DNA from: Christensenellaceae bacterium
GTDB lineage: Bacteria > Bacillota > Clostridia > Christensenellales > Borkfalkiaceae
Length of the DNA: 64,000 nt
Assembly (NCBI GenBank): GCA_045648045.1
Contig: JAZRNE010000037.1
Span: 4,721 to 68,720, forward strand
Reading direction: 5' to 3'
In this document: positions 24,531 through 48,562 of the stretch, piece by piece
How positions within the stretch are numbered: position 1 is the first letter of the stretch
How the letters are laid out: each line of letters begins with the position of its first letter
The notes under the pieces: model-generated
The model's input: the letters and a program-made list of their open reading frames with translations, nothing else
Told to the model about the DNA's origin: nothing
Database searches by the model: none
Made by a program: the position numbers and the translations under genes

Positions 24531-24785
24531 GTGCTTTTGCGGGAAGATATTATTGATAGAATTGTTGAAGAAGCGGAATATATTATTCGCACGGGGGATA
24601 CCGTTCGGGGAACGGCAAAAGTTTTTCATTTTTCAAAGTCAACCGTGCATAAAGACGTTACTGAAAGGTTGCTTAAAATCGACAAAGAACTTTGCAAACA
24701 AGTTAAAATCGTGCTAGATAAAAACCTTGCGGAACGCCATATTCGCGGTGGTGAAGCAACTAAAAGAAAATATAAGGGCTTTTAA
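24531..24785 (+). CDS. spoIIID: Stage III sporulation protein D (mother-cell transcription factor)
   Basis: VFHFSKSTVHKDVTERL...HIRGGEATKRKYK closely matches SpoIIID. The real start is probably TTG at 24537, 8 nt after ggggg. Confidence 0.88.
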   Translation: MLLREDIIDRIVEEAEYIIRTGDTVRGTAKVFHFSKSTVHKDVTERLLKIDKELCKQVKIVLDKNLAERHIRGGEATKRKYKGF

Positions 24786-24952: not shown

Positions 24953-25048
24953 AAGCGTTTCTAAACCGCGCATTTCATCGTTACTGCTCTTTCAAAAACG
25001 GCGACACTTGTCAACGCAGGCGTTATGAAAAACAAAAGGAGACTTTTT

Positions 25049-26086
25049 ATGAAAAAACTTTTTAGCATATTTTTAGCAATTATTTTGTGTGTTTCAACTT
25101 TGTGCTTAAGCGGTTGTAATTTAGCCGATTTATTTGGCGATAATTCTAACAAGGGGGATGACGGGCCTAAAAAAATTTCTTTTTACGCGCCCGACGGTGC
25201 GCCCGCTTTAGCGATTGCAAAATTTATAAACGATAACGAAAATTTTGGAATTGACGGTGTAATTGATTACAAGGTTGTTGCGTCAGGCGATATAGGTGGC
25301 GTTATGTCGCAAGGATTGGGCGATTTTATCGTAATGCCCGTTAACGCTGCAAGTAAACTTTATAAGGCAGGTAATTCTCAATACGTTATGACGGCGGTTA
25401 TAACTCACGGTAATTTATACTTAATGAGTAGTGACGGCACGAACACGCTTGACGATTTAAAAGGCAAAGTCGTCGGCGTTATCGGTCAAGGGTTAGTTCC
25501 CGATTTGACCTTAAAAGCAATCTTAAACGACAACAATCTATTAGGCGACGTTTTGGTTGGCGATACGGTAACCGACGGTAAAATAACTTTAAGATATTTT
25601 GCGTCTGCGCAAGAAATGATACCGCTACTTAAACAAGGTAAGTTGAACGTTGGGCTTTTACCCGAACCTGCGGCAACGAACTTAACCAAAGTTGCAAGCA
25701 ATAAAGAGTGGACGAGATTTGACGTTCAAGAACTTTACGACGCCCAAGCAAAATCTTATCCGCAAGCCGTTTTGATGGTTAGAAAAAGCCTTTATCAACC
25801 GTTTAAACAACAAATAGACGGAATGAAAGATTTGTTTGACGCTAACGTTCAATGGATAAAAGAAAATACTGCGGACGCAGTAACTACCGTTAATTCAAAA
25901 CTAAAAGAAGGCTTAACGCCTAGTTTAGATGCAACCAAGATAAACGCAGCGGTTATTGATAATTGTAAAATTTACTACCAAAGCGCAACGGATGCCAAAG
26001 CGTCAGTTGAAGGTTATTTGCAAAAAATAAAGGCTATATCAGAAATTTCCGCAGGGCAAATAGGCGAAGATTTCTTTGCTGAATAA
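25049..26086 (+). CDS. ABC transporter substrate-binding lipoprotein, NitT/TauT (NMT1/THI5-like) family
   Basis: Lipobox LSGC and size and sequence style of aliphatic-sulfonate/HMP-type binding proteins. Start at the ATG 7 nt after ggag. Confidence 0.65.
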   Translation: MKKLFSIFLAIILCVSTLCLSGCNLADLFGDNSNKGDDGPKKISFYAPDGAPALAIAKFINDNENFGIDGVIDYKVVASGDIGGVMSQGLGDFIVMPVNAASKLYKAGNSQYVMTAVITHGNLYLMSSDGTNTLDDLKGKVVGVIGQGLVPDLTLKAILNDNNLLGDVLVGDTVTDGKITLRYFASAQEMIPLLKQGKLNVGLLPEPAATNLTKVASNKEWTRFDVQELYDAQAKSYPQAVLMVRKSLYQPFKQQIDGMKDLFDANVQWIKENTADAVTTVNSKLKEGLTPSLDATKINAAVIDNCKIYYQSATDAKASVEGYLQKIKAISEISAGQIGEDFFAE

Positions 26087-26091
26087 TTAAA

Positions 26092-26850
26092 ATGAAAAAC
26101 AAAAAAGAAAAATCACTCAATTTAATATTGCCTTTAATTAGCGTAATTGCAATATTGCTATTGTGGGCGGTGGCGAGTGTAAGCATTGATAACGAATATA
26201 TCTTGCCGTCAATTCAAAAAACGGCAAAAGAATTTTTTGCGCTTTTTAATAGCAAAGAGTTTTATCTTTCGTTATGGTTAACCGTTATAAGAAGTTTTAT
26301 TGCTTTTGCCCTGTCTTTTATTCTTGCGCTAATATTTGCAATTTGCGCAAACAAAATAAAATATTTTAAGGCTCTTATTTCTCCGCTAATAAGCATAATG
26401 CGTGCCCTGCCAACCATAGCCATAGTTTTGCTTTTACTTTTTTGGACTAATTCAAAGGTTGCGCCTATTGTCGTAACTGCAATCGTAGTTTTGCCAACTT
26501 CTTACACGCATATAGAAAGCGCACTATTTTCGCTTGATAAAACTATTTCGGAAGCGGGTAGGGTAGACGGTGCGGATGAAAAAAGCGTGTTTTTAACTAT
26601 TGAATTGCCACAAATTTTCCCGTCGATTTATAGCGGAATAGGTAGTGGGTTATCGCTTAATCTAAAACTTATGGTGGCGGCGGAAGTTATTGCTCAAACG
26701 GCAAAGTCAATCGGGTATTTGCTAAACACTTCAAAAGTGTACTTTGAAATTGCCGAGATGCTTGCTATCGTTTGTTTCGTAATCGCTTTAGGTGTGATAA
26801 TTGAAAGCGTATTTAATTACCTTTCAAAAAAGGTGGGCGAATGGAAATAA
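26092..26850 (+). CDS. ABC transporter permease (BPD_transp_1, NitT/TauT family)
   Basis: Six TM segments and an EAA-like loop (ISEAGRVDGADE). Confidence 0.8.
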   Translation: MKNKKEKSLNLILPLISVIAILLLWAVASVSIDNEYILPSIQKTAKEFFALFNSKEFYLSLWLTVIRSFIAFALSFILALIFAICANKIKYFKALISPLISIMRALPTIAIVLLLLFWTNSKVAPIVVTAIVVLPTSYTHIESALFSLDKTISEAGRVDGADEKSVFLTIELPQIFPSIYSGIGSGLSLNLKLMVAAEVIAQTAKSIGYLLNTSKVYFEIAEMLAIVCFVIALGVIIESVFNYLSKKVGEWK

Positions 26851-26855
26851 AAAAA

Positions 26856-26879
26856 TAGCCACGGCGAAAGTCGTGGCTA
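26856..26879. terminator. Bidirectional terminator hairpin between the permease and convergent apbE
   Basis: tagccacg / cgtggcta stem, preceded by an A-run. Confidence 0.6.
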
Positions 26880-26896
26880 AATTATTTAATTAAACG

Positions 26897-27970
26897 TTAT
26901 ATATTAATTACAGTAAAATCTTGGTCGTTAAGTGTAAAATCTTGACCGAGATTTTTGTTCGTTAAAAGTACTTTTTCTTGTCCTTTTATAACGGCAACGA
27001 AAATTTGTACGCCTGAAAATTCATTTTCAATAACGCTTAAAAATTCGGTCAATGGATTTAACGGGTTTTCCGTTGAATATTCTTTTAAGCATATTGCAGT
27101 AGTCAAAGCGTCGGCAAGTGTGCCGTCAATTCCTATAAGAGTTGCGCTTGCCACGCCCGTTTGTGCGGGGTAACCCGTGTCGGGGTCAATTAAGTGGCAA
27201 AACTTGTTGCCGTTTATATCTATATGATATTTTTCATAATTACCGCTAGTAGAAACGGAAAGGTTTTCAAATTGATTTAGGTGGACTGTAAAGAGAGTTT
27301 TATTGCCGTCTTGCGGGTGGCGCACGCTTAAATTTTCAACTTTCAATAGGTTAAGGCTACTCGTGCCAACGCTAACGTATCCGTCGTTAAATCCGTTTTC
27401 TTTTAGAATTTTAGCAATTCCGTCCGCCACGTATCCTTTAACGATTCCGCCAAAATCAAGCGTTAAAGCGTTGCTGTTTTTAGATATAAAGCCGTCTTGC
27501 GTAACGCTAACGCCACTAAAATCGACTTTTGTAAGTTCAACTTCAATTTGTTCTTGCGTGGGTGGCGTGTAGTTTAAGGTGTATTTATAAGGCGCAAATC
27601 CCCAAAGTTTAACTAGCGGATATACGGTGGGGTTGAATTTACCGCCAGATAGAGTGTAAGCGGTTTTTGCTTGGTTAAAGATTTGTAATTCTACTTGGTT
27701 TAGTTTAAGAGTTTGGTTTTCTTCAAGGTTATTAAATTTTGCGTTAAAAGAATTTTCGTTATTTATATCGAATTGATTTTCGGCGTCGGTGGCAAACGTT
27801 TTAATAAGGTTTTTAGTTTTGGCGTTTATAGTCTTTGAATAAGAGCAAATCGTAACGGGGCAGTTAAAAGCCGTAAACACGTAAGAATTGACTTTTTGTT
27901 TACAACCTACAAGGCTAATTGCAATTATAAACGCTATTGAAATTGACAATAATTTTTTTACGTAGTACAT
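26897..27970 (-). CDS. apbE: FAD:protein FMN transferase (ApbE family) lipoprotein
   Basis: Lipobox LVGC, GGIVKGY and HLIDPDTGYP motifs. Confidence 0.85.
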   Translation of the reverse strand: MYYVKKLLSISIAFIIAISLVGCKQKVNSYVFTAFNCPVTICSYSKTINAKTKNLIKTFATDAENQFDINNENSFNAKFNNLEENQTLKLNQVELQIFNQAKTAYTLSGGKFNPTVYPLVKLWGFAPYKYTLNYTPPTQEQIEVELTKVDFSGVSVTQDGFISKNSNALTLDFGGIVKGYVADGIAKILKENGFNDGYVSVGTSSLNLLKVENLSVRHPQDGNKTLFTVHLNQFENLSVSTSGNYEKYHIDINGNKFCHLIDPDTGYPAQTGVASATLIGIDGTLADALTTAICLKEYSTENPLNPLTEFLSVIENEFSGVQIFVAVIKGQEKVLLTNKNLGQDFTLNDQDFTVINI

Positions 27971-28037: not shown

Positions 28038-28067
28038 TTGACAAACCACGGTAAGTTTTGATAAAAT
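28038..28067 (+). promoter_or_regulatory. Sigma-A promoter of the HprK-like/PqqD/DUF1846 operon
   Basis: TTGACA, 17-18 nt, (A)TAAAAT. Confidence 0.5.
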
Positions 28068-28107: not shown

Positions 28108-28824
28108 ATGATTAGATATAAGATTGCGGACGTGGTTTTTGATGCGAAAATAAGATATCGCTACACCAAAGAACTGTGTCAAGATTATGAATATTGTAGT
28201 GACGAGCAACCGGCTTTCGTTGCGGAAATTACCGAACAAGATATTTTAAATGAAAACGCACTTTCTAGTGAGCCGTTTCCACCTGCGTATCTTGAAAGCC
28301 TTGCGCTTTTTAGAAAACTTTGCAACTACTGTTTAGAGAATGCGGACGGGCTTATTTTTCATTCGAGTGCTATTGCCGTTGACGGGCAAGCCTATCTTTT
28401 TACAGCGCCTAGCGGAACGGGCAAATCGACACATGCAAGGCTTTGGCGTGAGTTATTAGGCGATAGGGCAGTTATGGTTAACGACGATAAACCTATCGTT
28501 AGGCTTATTGACGGGGAATTTTACGTTTACGGAACGCCTTGGAACGGCAAGCATAGATTAGGCAACAACTGCAAGATGAAAATTAAAGCCATTTGTGCTA
28601 TAAGTCAAGCGAAAGAGAATCAAATTCGCAGCGCAAGCACGGGTGAAATGCTTATGGTTATGCTAAATCAAACCATAAGGCCAAAAGAGCAAGTTAATAT
28701 GGATAAATTGCTTGGTTTACTAGAAAAATTATTACTAAGGGTTGATATTTACAAGTTGGGTTGCAATATTTCAAAAGAAGCGGCTGAACTTTCTTATAAA
28801 ACGATGTCGGGGTGTGAATTATGA
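28108..28824 (+). CDS. HPr-kinase-like P-loop protein (HprK-related kinase fold) of unknown substrate
   Basis: LIFHSSAIAVDGQAYLFTAPSGTGKSTHARLW resembles the HprK/P C-terminal domain P-loop. The gene overlaps the PqqD-like gene by 4 nt. Confidence 0.55.
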   Translation: MIRYKIADVVFDAKIRYRYTKELCQDYEYCSDEQPAFVAEITEQDILNENALSSEPFPPAYLESLALFRKLCNYCLENADGLIFHSSAIAVDGQAYLFTAPSGTGKSTHARLWRELLGDRAVMVNDDKPIVRLIDGEFYVYGTPWNGKHRLGNNCKMKIKAICAISQAKENQIRSASTGEMLMVMLNQTIRPKEQVNMDKLLGLLEKLLLRVDIYKLGCNISKEAAELSYKTMSGCEL

Positions 28825-29084
28825 AGATAAAACAAGGTTACATTTTGCGTGAAGTTGCTGGCAATTATATCGTAGTTGCCGTTGGCGAAGCCGTTAAGAA
28901 TTTTAACGGAATAATAAATCTTAACGATTCGGGCGCTTTTTTGTGGAAACTTCTTCAAGAAGGCGCAACGGAAGAGCAACTAAAAGAAAGTTTGCTTAAC
29001 GAATACGAAGTGGACGAGCAAATTGCCGAGCGTGATATTAAGGCGTTCATTAATAAACTTAGTGAAAAAGGGCTTTTAGATTAA
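28821..29084 (+). CDS. PqqD-family protein (RiPP-recognition-element-like peptide chaperone)
   Basis: 87 aa with YIVVAVGEA...IINLNDSGAFLWKLL.EG.T.EQL...L..EYEV....A..DI..FI..L...GLL, the classic PqqD pattern. Confidence 0.75.
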   Translation: MKIKQGYILREVAGNYIVVAVGEAVKNFNGIINLNDSGAFLWKLLQEGATEEQLKESLLNEYEVDEQIAERDIKAFINKLSEKGLLD

Positions 29085-29100
29085 CAGGAGCGTTTTAACG

Positions 29101-30579
29101 ATGGAAAAAGGTTTTGATAACAAGAAATATTTGGAGATGCAGTCGGCGAAGATTTTAGAGCGAATTAAAATGTTCGGCGACAAACTTTATCTAGAATTCG
29201 GTGGTAAGTTGTTTGACGATTACCACGCGTCGCGCGTGCTACCCGGTTTTGAGCCGGATAGCAAAATCAAGATGCTTTCTCAACTCAAAGATAAGGCGGA
29301 AATGCTAATTGTTATCAATGCAAACGATATCGAAAAGAATAAGCAAAGAAGCGATTTGGGTATTACTTACGACCTAGACGTTTTAAGGCTTATCGACATA
29401 TTCGTTAACGAAGGTTTTTACGTTGGTAGCGTAGTGTTGACAAGGTTTGCAGAGCAACCGTCGGCAGTTGCTTTCCAAAAGCGTTTAGAAATGCGTGGGG
29501 TTAAGGTTTACCGCCATTATCCTATCGAAGGTTATCCGTCGGAAGTTGAAAAAATCGTTAGCGAACAAGGTTACGGCAAAAACGAATACGTCGTTACTAC
29601 AAGACCGTTGGTGGTGGTTACTGCGCCCGGTCCTGGTAGTGGAAAAATGGCAACTTGCCTTTCGCAGTTGTATCACGAAAATAAGCGTGGGGTTAAGGCG
29701 GGGTATGCTAAATATGAAACTTTCCCCGTTTGGAACTTGCCGTTAAACCACCCAGTTAACGCGGCTTACGAAGCGGCTACTGCCGACCTTAACGATATGA
29801 ATATGATTGACCCTTTTCATATGGATGCTTACGGGGTTATGGCTGTCAATTATAATAGAGACGTTGAAATTTTCCCCGTTCTATCAGCAATGCTAAATAA
29901 GGTGCAAGGAAAGTGTCCTTATAAATCGCCAACCGATATGGGCGTTAATATGGCAGGGTATTGCATAGTTAACGACCAAATTGTTGAACAAGCGTCAAAG
30001 CAAGAGATTTTAAGGCGCTATTACGCCGCGCAAGTGGATGCTAGAAAGGGTGTTATAGGCAAAGAAACTATTTCAAAAATAGAAATTCTTATGCAAAGAA
30101 TGAAAATTAGCATAAAGGATAGAGCGGTGGTAAAGTTTGCGCTTGAAAAAGAAGCGTCTACCGGTAGCCCAGCGTGCGCTATACAGCTTTCCGATGGTAG
30201 AATGGTTACGGGTAAAACGGGCAAACTTTTAGGCGCAAGTTCAGCAGCACTACTCAATGCCTTGAAGGTGCTCAGCGGAATAGGCGAAGAAGTTGAATTG
30301 ATTTCTTCTACGGTAATAGAGCCTATCCAACAGTTAAAAGTAAATCACATGGGTAGCGTTAACCCTAGACTGCATACGGATGAAGTTTTGATTTCGCTTG
30401 CTGTAAGCGCCGCTACCGATGCGTCGGCAAAGGCTGCAATGGGGCAACTTTCAGGGTTAAAGGACGCGCAGTTCCATTCGTCGGTTGTGCTTAGCCCCGT
30501 AGATGAAATGACGCTTAAAAAGTTGGGAATTAACGTTACTTGCGAGCCCAAAAGGCAAACTGAAAGAAATTTAGATTAA
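29101..30579 (+). CDS. DUF1846 (UPF0371) family protein
   Basis: N-terminus GFDN.KYL..QS..I.ERI..F..KLYLEFGGKLFDD.HA.RVLPGF is characteristic of this family. It begins 16 nt downstream of the PqqD-like gene. Confidence 0.75.
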   Translation: MEKGFDNKKYLEMQSAKILERIKMFGDKLYLEFGGKLFDDYHASRVLPGFEPDSKIKMLSQLKDKAEMLIVINANDIEKNKQRSDLGITYDLDVLRLIDIFVNEGFYVGSVVLTRFAEQPSAVAFQKRLEMRGVKVYRHYPIEGYPSEVEKIVSEQGYGKNEYVVTTRPLVVVTAPGPGSGKMATCLSQLYHENKRGVKAGYAKYETFPVWNLPLNHPVNAAYEAATADLNDMNMIDPFHMDAYGVMAVNYNRDVEIFPVLSAMLNKVQGKCPYKSPTDMGVNMAGYCIVNDQIVEQASKQEILRRYYAAQVDARKGVIGKETISKIEILMQRMKISIKDRAVVKFALEKEASTGSPACAIQLSDGRMVTGKTGKLLGASSAALLNALKVLSGIGEEVELISSTVIEPIQQLKVNHMGSVNPRLHTDEVLISLAVSAATDASAKAAMGQLSGLKDAQFHSSVVLSPVDEMTLKKLGINVTCEPKRQTERNLD

Positions 30580-30703
30580 AACGAAAAAATAGTTGTAAAA
30601 CGTGTTTTTTTAGTGCAATTTATAATATAATTTATCGTTTAAATATTGACAATATAGAATTGTTGTGATATAATTTAGAAAATACTGTTTAGGAGTGTGG
30701 ATT

Positions 30704-31681
30704 ATGGACCCATTAGTTATTTTAATCGTTGCTATTTCTGTTTCCGTTGCGCTTTTGGTAAGCGTTATTGTGCATGCTGTTACTGAACGCAGCAAACTTA
30801 AAGCTTTCCAAAAGTACATAAGTCAAACTATTACCGAGAAAGATATTGCGTTAGTTAAAAATGAAATTTTTGGTATTGCAATACCAGAAAAATTTTTAGA
30901 ACCTTCTATTAAGGTAGTTGAAGAAGAAGTTGCTCCTGTTGAAGAAGTAATCGAAGAAGAAGTTGCTCCTGTTGAAGAAGTAATCGAAGAAGAAGTTGCT
31001 CCTGTTGAAGAAGTAGTTGAAGAAGAAGTTGCTCCTGTTGAAGAAGTAATCGAAGAAGAAGTTGCTCCCGTTGAAGAAGTAGTTGCTCCTGTTGAAGAAG
31101 TAATCGAAGAAGAAGTTGCTCCTGTTGAAGAAGTAATTGAAGAAGAAGTTGCTCCTGTTGAAGAAGTAATTGAAGAAACTGCTGAAGAAGAAGTTGAAGA
31201 AGTAGAAGAAGAAATTATCGTTCCTATGTTAGAAAGAGCGGATTCAAAGAGCCGTATTCCTTTTGCTGACAAGATGATTTATCTCGACAAGAAAACGCAA
31301 GGTTTCTACAATGCGTTGATGAACAAGTTTAAGGGCTTGCGTAAAATCAACATTCGTATTTCTTCAAAAGGCGTTTCATATCGTCTTGGTAGAGAGTTGA
31401 TTGCAAAACTTACTATTCGTGGTAAGACACTCCGTTTGCATTTGGCTTTAGACTTAAATGCTTTTGATGAAAAAGTATATTTCCAAAAAGATATGGGCGA
31501 CGTTAGGTCTTACGTTGAAGTTCCTTTCACAGTAAAGATTAGAAGTGATAGAGGTTTAAGAAATGCAATGAAACTTATCGATGAGTTGATTGCACTTAAA
31601 GGTATTGAAGAAAAAGCACGTTTCAACAAAACCGACGGCGTTAAAGATTTGAAAATTATCGCATTAAAAAACAGAAAGTAG
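30704..31681 (+). CDS. Membrane-anchored protein with an acidic EEVAPVEEVIE tandem-repeat linker and a conserved basic C-terminal domain, function unknown
   Basis: One N-terminal TM, about 100 aa of 11-residue repeats and a 150-aa C-terminal domain. The ATG after ggag is preferred over the GTG at 30695. Confidence 0.7.
   Translation: MDPLVILIVAISVSVALLVSVIVHAVTERSKLKAFQKYISQTITEKDIALVKNEIFGIAIPEKFLEPSIKVVEEEVAPVEEVIEEEVAPVEEVIEEEVAPVEEVVEEEVAPVEEVIEEEVAPVEEVVAPVEEVIEEEVAPVEEVIEEEVAPVEEVIEETAEEEVEEVEEEIIVPMLERADSKSRIPFADKMIYLDKKTQGFYNALMNKFKGLRKINIRISSKGVSYRLGRELIAKLTIRGKTLRLHLALDLNAFDEKVYFQKDMGDVRSYVEVPFTVKIRSDRGLRNAMKLIDELIALKGIEEKARFNKTDGVKDLKIIALKNRK
30914..31216 (+). repeat. In-frame tandem repeat, 33-nt unit, about 8-9 copies (one 24-nt unit)
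   Basis: Near-identical gaagaagttgctcctgttgaagaagtaatcgaa units. Variants occur only at wobble or V/I positions. Confidence 0.9.
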
Positions 31682-48486: not shown

Positions 48487-48562
48487 GCTGGTGTGGCTCA
48501 GTCGGTAGAGCAGCTGATTCGTAATCAGCAGGTCGCAGGTTCGAATCCCGTCACCAGCTCCA
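48487..48562 (+). tRNA. tRNA-Thr (anticodon CGT), CCA encoded
   Basis: Cloverleaf with acceptor gctggtg/caccagc, D arm gctc..gagc, and anticodon stem gctga/tcagc with loop ttCGTaa. T loop ttcgaat, 3' tCCA. As I read it the T stem has one A:C mismatch (gcagg/cccgt). Confidence 0.85.

Follow-up and report, generated by a model that had tools for sequence, protein, structure and literature searches.

Do the three genes that lie head to tail at positions 28108-30579 of a 64,000-nucleotide (nt) stretch of a Christensenellaceae bacterium genome (contig JAZRNE010000037.1; the whole stretch is hereafter called the window) constitute a system of their own, or are they neighbours with separate tasks? 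The genes encode a protein assigned to the ScmC family with likeness to HPr kinase (HprK), a small PqqD-family protein and a member of the DUF1846 family, and a preliminary description had proposed them as a candidate for an undescribed system. This term is too strong: the pair formed by the first two genes belongs, by precomputed annotation, to a large family already modelled in Pfam (PF27840), its usual setting is a cassette resembling those of peptides that are made on the ribosome and modified after translation (RiPPs), and the locus represents a reduced form of that setting. What the window holds is a reduced PqqD/HprK-like module beside pyrJ and not a new three-gene system. The apparent system splits into a probable ortholog of a known enzyme, PyrJ, and a reduced pair of recognition element and putative kinase, and the value of this finding is mostly corrective. 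As to the task of the operon, we consider it moderately probable that it is a composite, in which a reduced PqqD/ScmC-like module, whose substrate would be encoded in trans, is accompanied by a housekeeping pyrJ passenger.

Predicted fold and conserved residues of the ScmC-like protein

The first gene (28108-28824, + strand) encodes a protein of 238 amino acids (aa), a putative ATP-dependent peptide kinase with a predicted HPr-kinase/PEPCK-like P-loop fold. By sequence the relationship is weak. The protein scores 27 bits against the ScmC equivalog TIGR04249 of NCBIfam (cut-off 125), 21.9 bits against TIGR04352, the HprK-related kinase A of the HPr-rel-A system (cut-off 200), and 12 bits against the HPr kinase/phosphorylase model TIGR00679 (cut-off 240); the corresponding profile E-values, all from matches far under the cut-offs, are 2.3e-6 for ScmC, 7.9e-5 for HprK_rel_A, 0.087 for hpr-ser and 0.003 for PEPCK_ATP. 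When the sequences of the PDB were searched with the family profile, generic P-loop matches (ABC transporters, PEPCK) were obtained and HprK appeared at an E-value of 0.74, and the HprK assignment therefore rests on the fold. An AlphaFold2 (AF2) model built from an alignment of 32 diverse homologues reached a predicted local distance difference test (pLDDT) value of 96.5 and a predicted template modelling (pTM) score of 0.91. Its best PDB matches in Foldseek are the HPr kinase/phosphorylases (HprK/P) 1knx, 1ko7 and 1kkm (E ~2e-6, probability 1.0), and ATP-dependent PEPCK is also among the best matches, with the best whole-length overlaps (TMq 0.53-0.61). The model thus settles the predicted fold as one of the HPr-kinase/PEPCK type, and the HprK-like character noticed in the preliminary description holds by fold, although weakly by sequence. 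HprK/P and ATP-dependent PEPCK share this P-loop fold with the protein at an identity of 8-19%; from HprK/P it differs in the N-terminal domain and in its partner, which is PqqD and not HPr.

The Pfam family PF27840 ('ScmC') appears in the precomputed annotation of an identical protein (P0001) and of its relatives, being faint or weak in some of them. The family is large, with 8,958 representatives after clustering at 50% (E <=1e-3), 859 of them at E <=1e-30. Sixteen positions are invariant among homologues of 36-64% identity, including H85, the Walker A residues S102, G105, K106 and T108, the residues N125, D127, K128 and P129, and G142, P144, W145, G147 and K148. The Walker A motif reads APSGTGKST and is followed by an acidic NDD motif. 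The order and spacing H-21-K(P-loop)-about 20-DD appear to resemble those of the catalytic residues of HprK/P. By analogy, the protein most likely moves phosphate from ATP to Ser or Thr.

In P0158, a 316-aa protein of the representative library, a Caudoviral major tail N-terminal domain (3.4e-22) is followed by the last 150 residues of an ScmC-like protein, with 60% identity to that of the window; this may reflect a chimera of assembly or gene calling.

The PqqD-family protein and its pairing with the ScmC-like protein

The second gene (28821-29084, + strand; 87 aa) encodes a putative leader-peptide recognition element and partner of the kinase-like protein. Its placement in the PqqD family, already made in the preliminary description, is confirmed by PF05402 (E 2.4e-18; 66.7 bits against a gathering score of 23.4), with 66 of the 67 profile positions covered. 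Among curated families, the lasso B1 chaperones NF033530 and NF033536 come closest, with scores of 41 and 39.6 bits that stay below the cut-offs of 70 and 80, respectively. The PqqD model of pyrroloquinoline quinone (PQQ) biosynthesis, TIGR03859, gives 20 bits, under its cut-off of 46, and ScmD (TIGR04248) is matched at an E-value of 1.5e-5 (25 bits, cut-off 100).

Gene contexts were compared in 80 loci with relatives of the pair (one genome per species) and in 8 loci retrieved by exact-protein look-up (L001-L005, L086-L088); those in which DUF1846 directly follows the pair are called trio loci. A PqqD gene lies within 7 kb of the ScmC-like gene in each of the 13 trio loci and in 58 of the 73 non-trio loci, and P0106 and P0265 are single proteins in which the two are joined. 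Adjacency in most loci across Clostridia and fusion in some relatives mark the ScmC-like and PqqD proteins as partners that truly function together. The fusion P0106 was modelled with AF2 (pLDDT 81, pTM 0.65), which was uninformative on PqqD docking.

The DUF1846 protein and the extent of the trio

The third gene (29101-30579, + strand; 492 aa) encodes a DUF1846/UPF0371 protein, matching the N-terminal domain PF08903 with 599 bits (E 1.9e-180) and the C-terminal domain PF20921 with 207 bits (E 1.9e-61), and passing the equivalog NF010184 (801 bits, cut-off 631). Against structures of the family it scores 617 bits with 7F00, UPF0371 of Streptococcus pneumoniae, and 604 bits with 3BH1. The preliminary description had given the protein by its DUF number, and a reading of the family as an unknown has been overtaken: the S. 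pneumoniae member Spd_0310 was found to be synthetically lethal with pyrG in a Dual Tn-seq preprint and was named PyrJ (10.1101/2024.09.24.614635), and the same single preprint reports it as an ammonia-dependent CTP synthase converting UTP to CTP (10.1101/2024.09.24.614635). In Clostridioides difficile the DUF1846 gene is essential (PMC12157513). The function of DUF1846 is thus no longer unknown, and the window protein is a probable PyrJ ortholog, with the CTP synthase role transferred from Spd_0310 by sequence similarity. It is a full-length, high-scoring member without notable difference from PyrJ in the protein itself, unusual only in its operon partners and only in the Christensenellaceae-like clade described below.

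The arrangement of the three genes is exactly as first described, with three tightly packed co-directional frames behind one promoter-like site. Four nucleotides (ATGA) are shared by the first two, with a purine-rich GGGGTG upstream, and a 16-nt gap carrying an AGGAG ribosome-binding site separates the second from the third. The promoter-like site (28038-28067, + strand) consists of TTGACA, an 18-nt spacer with upstream TG, and TAAAAT, with 11 of 12 consensus matches, and was called by pattern matching in a consensus scan. The scan gave no terminator-like site in 28390-31498, and the next strong promoter-like site (30646-30674) is found 3' of the third gene. A single operon is the natural reading of this layout of patterns. 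The three open reading frames (ORFs) are real genes and not chance ORFs, since they have more than 7,700 homologues and show ratios of nonsynonymous to synonymous substitution (dN/dS) of 0.05-0.20 against relatives with saturated synonymous sites.

DUF1846 lies directly 3' of the pair only in one closest, Christensenellaceae-like clade, comprising 12 distinct loci (the window, L001, L004, L006-L012, L086 and L087) from Christensenellaceae, Christensenella or Clostridia metagenome-assembled genomes. Within it the ScmC-like proteins of the genome-scan loci L006-L012 are 54-73% identical to that of the window, and a neighbour-joining tree shows the trio clade as monophyletic, beside clades with an ScmC-PqqD-peptidase context. 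In the context count DUF1846 adjoins the pair in all 13 trio loci against 0 of 73 other genomic loci, one copy in L031 being about 10 kb away and not adjacent. It was not found beside the pair in about 80 further metagenomic loci; the metagenome scan for close relatives returned one short close contig, the rest belonging mostly to a human-gut lineage of 44% identity. The link to DUF1846 fails as a general association of the pair. Of the three-gene synteny, then, the pairing of HprK-like and PqqD genes stands across Clostridia, whereas the co-occurrence of DUF1846, and with it the functional link once envisaged as a general feature, is confined to a single clade.

Within that clade the trio is stable. 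Over the 12 distinct loci, with synonymous sites saturated, spacing ranges from -11 to +33 nt between the first and second genes and from 4 to 22 nt between the second and third, and the trio is kept whether GroES, EF-G or another gene adjoins it downstream. Such invariance, with spacing like that of translational coupling and with survival of changes of the downstream neighbour, would be expected if the pair had been co-opted in this clade to act on PyrJ or pyrimidine metabolism, for example by a PqqD-guided regulatory phosphorylation of CTP synthase, so that the trio would be a true functional unit; the lack of a separate strong promoter 5' of pyrJ, and of a leader peptidase and an exporter such as a secreted peptide would need, also agrees with this. 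However, the upstream synteny of the clade (SpoIIID, an ABC transporter and a divergent ApbE gene) is conserved too, and shared ancestry therefore explains much of the stability of the trio. Furthermore, DUF1846 never adjoins the pair outside the one clade, an independent orphan pair has unrelated neighbours, the ScmC-like and PqqD proteins of the clade show no marked divergence from their cassette-type relatives, and neither hidden Markov model (HMM) nor regular expression found a leader-like segment in PyrJ. We therefore regard co-option as quite unlikely. A kindred proposal, that the Christensenellaceae-like pair lost a role in peptide export and turned into a housekeeping protein-modification module co-regulated with PyrJ and perhaps acting on it, seems to us similarly improbable or slightly more so. 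Were it true, a PqqD-guided kinase would have a cellular protein as its target in place of a secreted natural product.

Usual setting of the pair

Outside the trio clade the pair has a characteristic company, which was defined by clustering the ORFs around the 73 non-trio loci and then profiling representatives. Besides PqqD, the ScmC-like gene recurs there with an S24/S26-like peptidase (49/73), a precursor (21/73), an ABC exporter of about 570 aa (32/73) and an NTP_transf_5 nucleotidyltransferase of about 380 aa (32/73; PF14907, 5.8e-37), while a radical S-adenosylmethionine (SAM) enzyme stands beside the pair in 5 of these loci. The peptidase, about 145 aa long and carrying a GDSM motif, gives weak matches to Peptidase_S24 (E 0.01) and to archaeal-type signal peptidase I (6.7e-5), and the S24 gathering score is exceeded by P0190, a fused relative. 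Fusions join ScmC-like proteins to PqqD, radical SAM or S24-like domains, and in L041, L070 and L072 S24-like and NTP_transf_5 parts share an ORF of about 500 aa.

BLAST clustering puts 34 small ORFs from 21 loci into the precursor-like family, and an HMM finds 41 of them in 24 loci. Most are situated 5' of the ScmC-like gene, often in tandem, with six copies in L020, and none of the Pfam or NCBIfam models matches the family. A common leader of the form MxKYExPEMEVVxFExEDVITTS precedes short, hypervariable and often acidic cores, which rarely end in Ser. The leader presumably recalls the YxxPxL...T motif of lasso leaders, which would fit the nearest curated relatives of the PqqD protein; no lasso cyclase or B2 protease is adjacent to the pair in these cassettes. 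We found no description of the cassette in the literature searched, and queries on PF27840, ScmC, SynChlorMet and NTP_transf_5 returned nothing relevant, 'ScmC' matching unrelated acronyms alone. The cassette with its tandem precursors, widespread in rumen and gut Clostridia, is a concrete candidate for a new class of modified peptide and offers a route to the chemistry of the ScmC family. Examples among L013-L085 and L090-L162, from rumen and gut Clostridia, are L020:2314-3223, L081:162-1446, L033:881-1336 and L068:9974-14301.

This setting bears on the chemistry that is to be expected of the ScmC-like protein. Instead of a peptide kinase it might be an enzyme whose P-loop serves a nucleotide- or pyrophosphate-dependent chemistry, or have a phosphorylase or ATPase scaffold role. 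The ScmC family is without a characterised member, similarity to HprK is marginal by sequence, and over the whole length the structure overlaps best with that of PEPCK, an enzyme acting on small molecules; moreover, the scarcity of terminal Ser in the cassette precursors differs from what is seen in the substrates of lasso kinases. Yet the obligate pairing and fusion with a peptide-binding PqqD domain and the co-occurrence with precursors, protease and exporter speak against such a role, as does the apparently HprK/P-like spacing of His, P-loop Lys and DD. We judge another chemistry unlikely.

In another clade (L013, L014, L019 and L060) an ScmC-PqqD-peptidase unit is located directly 5' of a housekeeping YjeF_N gene (NAD(P)HX epimerase-like) and also adjoins dockerin-bearing secreted proteins, which makes a second case of the module among housekeeping genes.

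Missing partners and purifying selection

The cassette partners are missing at the locus under study. By tblastn, by HMMs on six-frame translations, by a leader HMM (hmmsearch --max, E up to 10) and by two regular expressions, no precursor, S24/S26-like peptidase, exporter, NTP_transf_5 protein or radical SAM enzyme was detected at any of the trio loci or in the whole 64 kb of the window, which bears out the absence of a local precursor or maturase noted in the preliminary description. The intergenic spaces flanking the trio, of 137 and 115 nt, are too short for a precursor. Among the trio loci no small ORF was found to be conserved outside the known genes, and no leader-like segment was found in the window proteins, PyrJ included, by HMM or regular expression.

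With every other part of a cassette absent from the window and an essential downstream gene dependent on the upstream promoter, one could suppose that the pair is what remains of a lost RiPP cassette, no longer functional and in decay, and is kept only because pyrJ is transcribed through it. The selection analysis largely refutes this. Reading frames are intact in every trio locus, and against other trio loci, with dS saturated, dN/dS amounts to 0.10-0.16 for the ScmC-like gene, 0.09-0.20 for PqqD and 0.05-0.08 for DUF1846. All 16 family-invariant residues of the ScmC-like protein are retained in the trio clade, as are about 50 positions conserved in the cassette-type relatives, including H85, the P-loop and D126/D127, and in-frame fusion variants occur within the clade. 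The pair is under purifying selection and not decaying, and a dead remnant is accordingly very improbable. Substitutions specific to the trio clade are few and conservative; neofunctionalisation of the clade's pair, for which nothing beyond these was found, was rejected.

A human-gut lineage has a second orphan pair, in reversed order (PqqD, then the ScmC-like gene), whose unrelated neighbours encode a secreted protein and a surface protein of 1,310 aa; the pair can thus persist alone in different genomic settings. Orphan ScmC-PqqD pairs under purifying selection and without a nearby precursor are therefore present in at least two independent lineages. In L103 (8161-10625) and related human-gut loci (L092-L129), the orphan PqqD-ScmC-like pair and a 272-aa secreted protein lie between two direct repeats of 201 nt, 98% identical in L103, which are copies of the Clostridiales-1 RNA motif (RF01699, 153-154 bits).

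Proposed function and comparison with known systems

We propose that the PqqD protein may bind a leader-like segment of a peptide and would present the substrate to the HprK-fold ScmC-like enzyme, which in turn, in analogy to the kinases homologous to HprK in Firmicute lasso clusters, would use ATP to phosphorylate Ser or Thr. Since the usual cassette partners are missing from the locus, the pair would have to act on a substrate encoded elsewhere, and a peptide or protein encoded in trans elsewhere in the genome is the natural inference where neither precursor nor maturase is visible locally. In this composite operon pyrJ would be co-transcribed with the pair through lineage-specific gene order and without a shared pathway. 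Several points weigh against such a proposal. Kinase activity is putative throughout the ScmC family and the sequence match to HprK is weak; no substrate was found in the 64 kb of genome that the search covered; the absence of leader peptidase and exporter indicates that this is not an ordinary RiPP pathway of the export type; and the tight spacing of the trio in 12 of 12 distinct loci, despite saturated dS and differing downstream neighbours, would also be expected from a real link to PyrJ. The composite reading nevertheless has a wider consequence: because orphan pairs are kept under selection, PqqD-guided modification may work on substrates encoded elsewhere, and such trans-encoded substrates would escape genome mining based on clusters.

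The closest functional parallel is offered by the lasso peptides. In Firmicute lasso clusters an HprK homologue phosphorylates the C-terminal Ser of the precursor, and a nucleotidyltransferase, sometimes fused to the protease, adds a hexose to the Ser phosphate (PMC8498205; PMC7533575). In gene content, the clusters with the kinases PadeK (paeninodin) and PsmK (pseudomycoidin, with the nucleotidyltransferase PsmN) likewise place an HprK-type P-loop enzyme beside a PqqD-type protein. The fuller cassettes of the pair's relatives share with them a nucleotidyltransferase and an ABC exporter, and the fusion of nucleotidyltransferase and protease known from some lasso clusters has its counterpart in L041, L070 and L072. 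In contrast, the cyclase and the transglutaminase-type B2 protease of lasso clusters are found neither beside the pair in the window nor in the cassettes, which use the signal-peptidase-like (S24/S26) protein, and the window locus is further without the precursor, protease and exporter or nucleotidyltransferase parts. Within about 4 kb of the trio, where the neighbours are ApbE, the ABC permease, DUF1846, a repeat protein and GroES/GroEL, no lasso gene cluster (precursor, B2 protease, macrolactam synthetase C) is adjacent, the rest of the window not having been profiled gene by gene for a cyclase.

SynChlorMet supplies the best curated match of the first protein (ScmC) and a match of the second (ScmD), both far below the equivalog cut-offs. 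Some ScmC-like relatives are fused to or adjoin radical SAM enzymes; the radical SAM/SPASM partners of SynChlorMet, ScmE and ScmF, were not found in the window by tblastn or HMM. With the clostridial cassette of the YExPEMEV leader the window shares the ScmC-like gene adjoining PqqD, and it differs by the lack of precursors, S24/S26-like peptidase, ABC exporter and NTP_transf_5.

Neighbouring genes and further observations

An Rfam search gave nothing near the trio, the sole match in the window being a tRNA at 48487-48559, and a PADLOC search for anti-phage defence gave no match for any of the three trio proteins. Upstream, a SpoIIID sporulation regulator (24531-24785, + strand; PF12116, 2.6e-33) is present in all loci of the trio clade that reach far enough, and its conservation suggests a spore-forming lineage. 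Between it and the trio (25025-27970) lie a gene for a 353-aa protein that resembles lipoproteins and has no Pfam match, together with the genes for an ABC permease (BPD_transp_1) and, in divergent orientation, an ApbE flavin transferase; an ABC ATPase gene lies between permease and ApbE in L086-L088 and is absent from the window and L001.

Downstream of the trio, a 328-aa ORF (30695-31681, + strand) follows the promoter-like site at 30646-30674, which is its own and of perfect consensus. Its features are a hydrophobic segment at the N terminus and a 33-nt tandem repeat, present in about 8 copies (30920-31177), that encodes EEEVAPVEEVI; the C-terminal domain, without Pfam match, gives weak matches to PADLOC PDC-S18 (3.7e-5). 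Homologues of this ORF are located 3' of DUF1846 in L006, L007 and L011.

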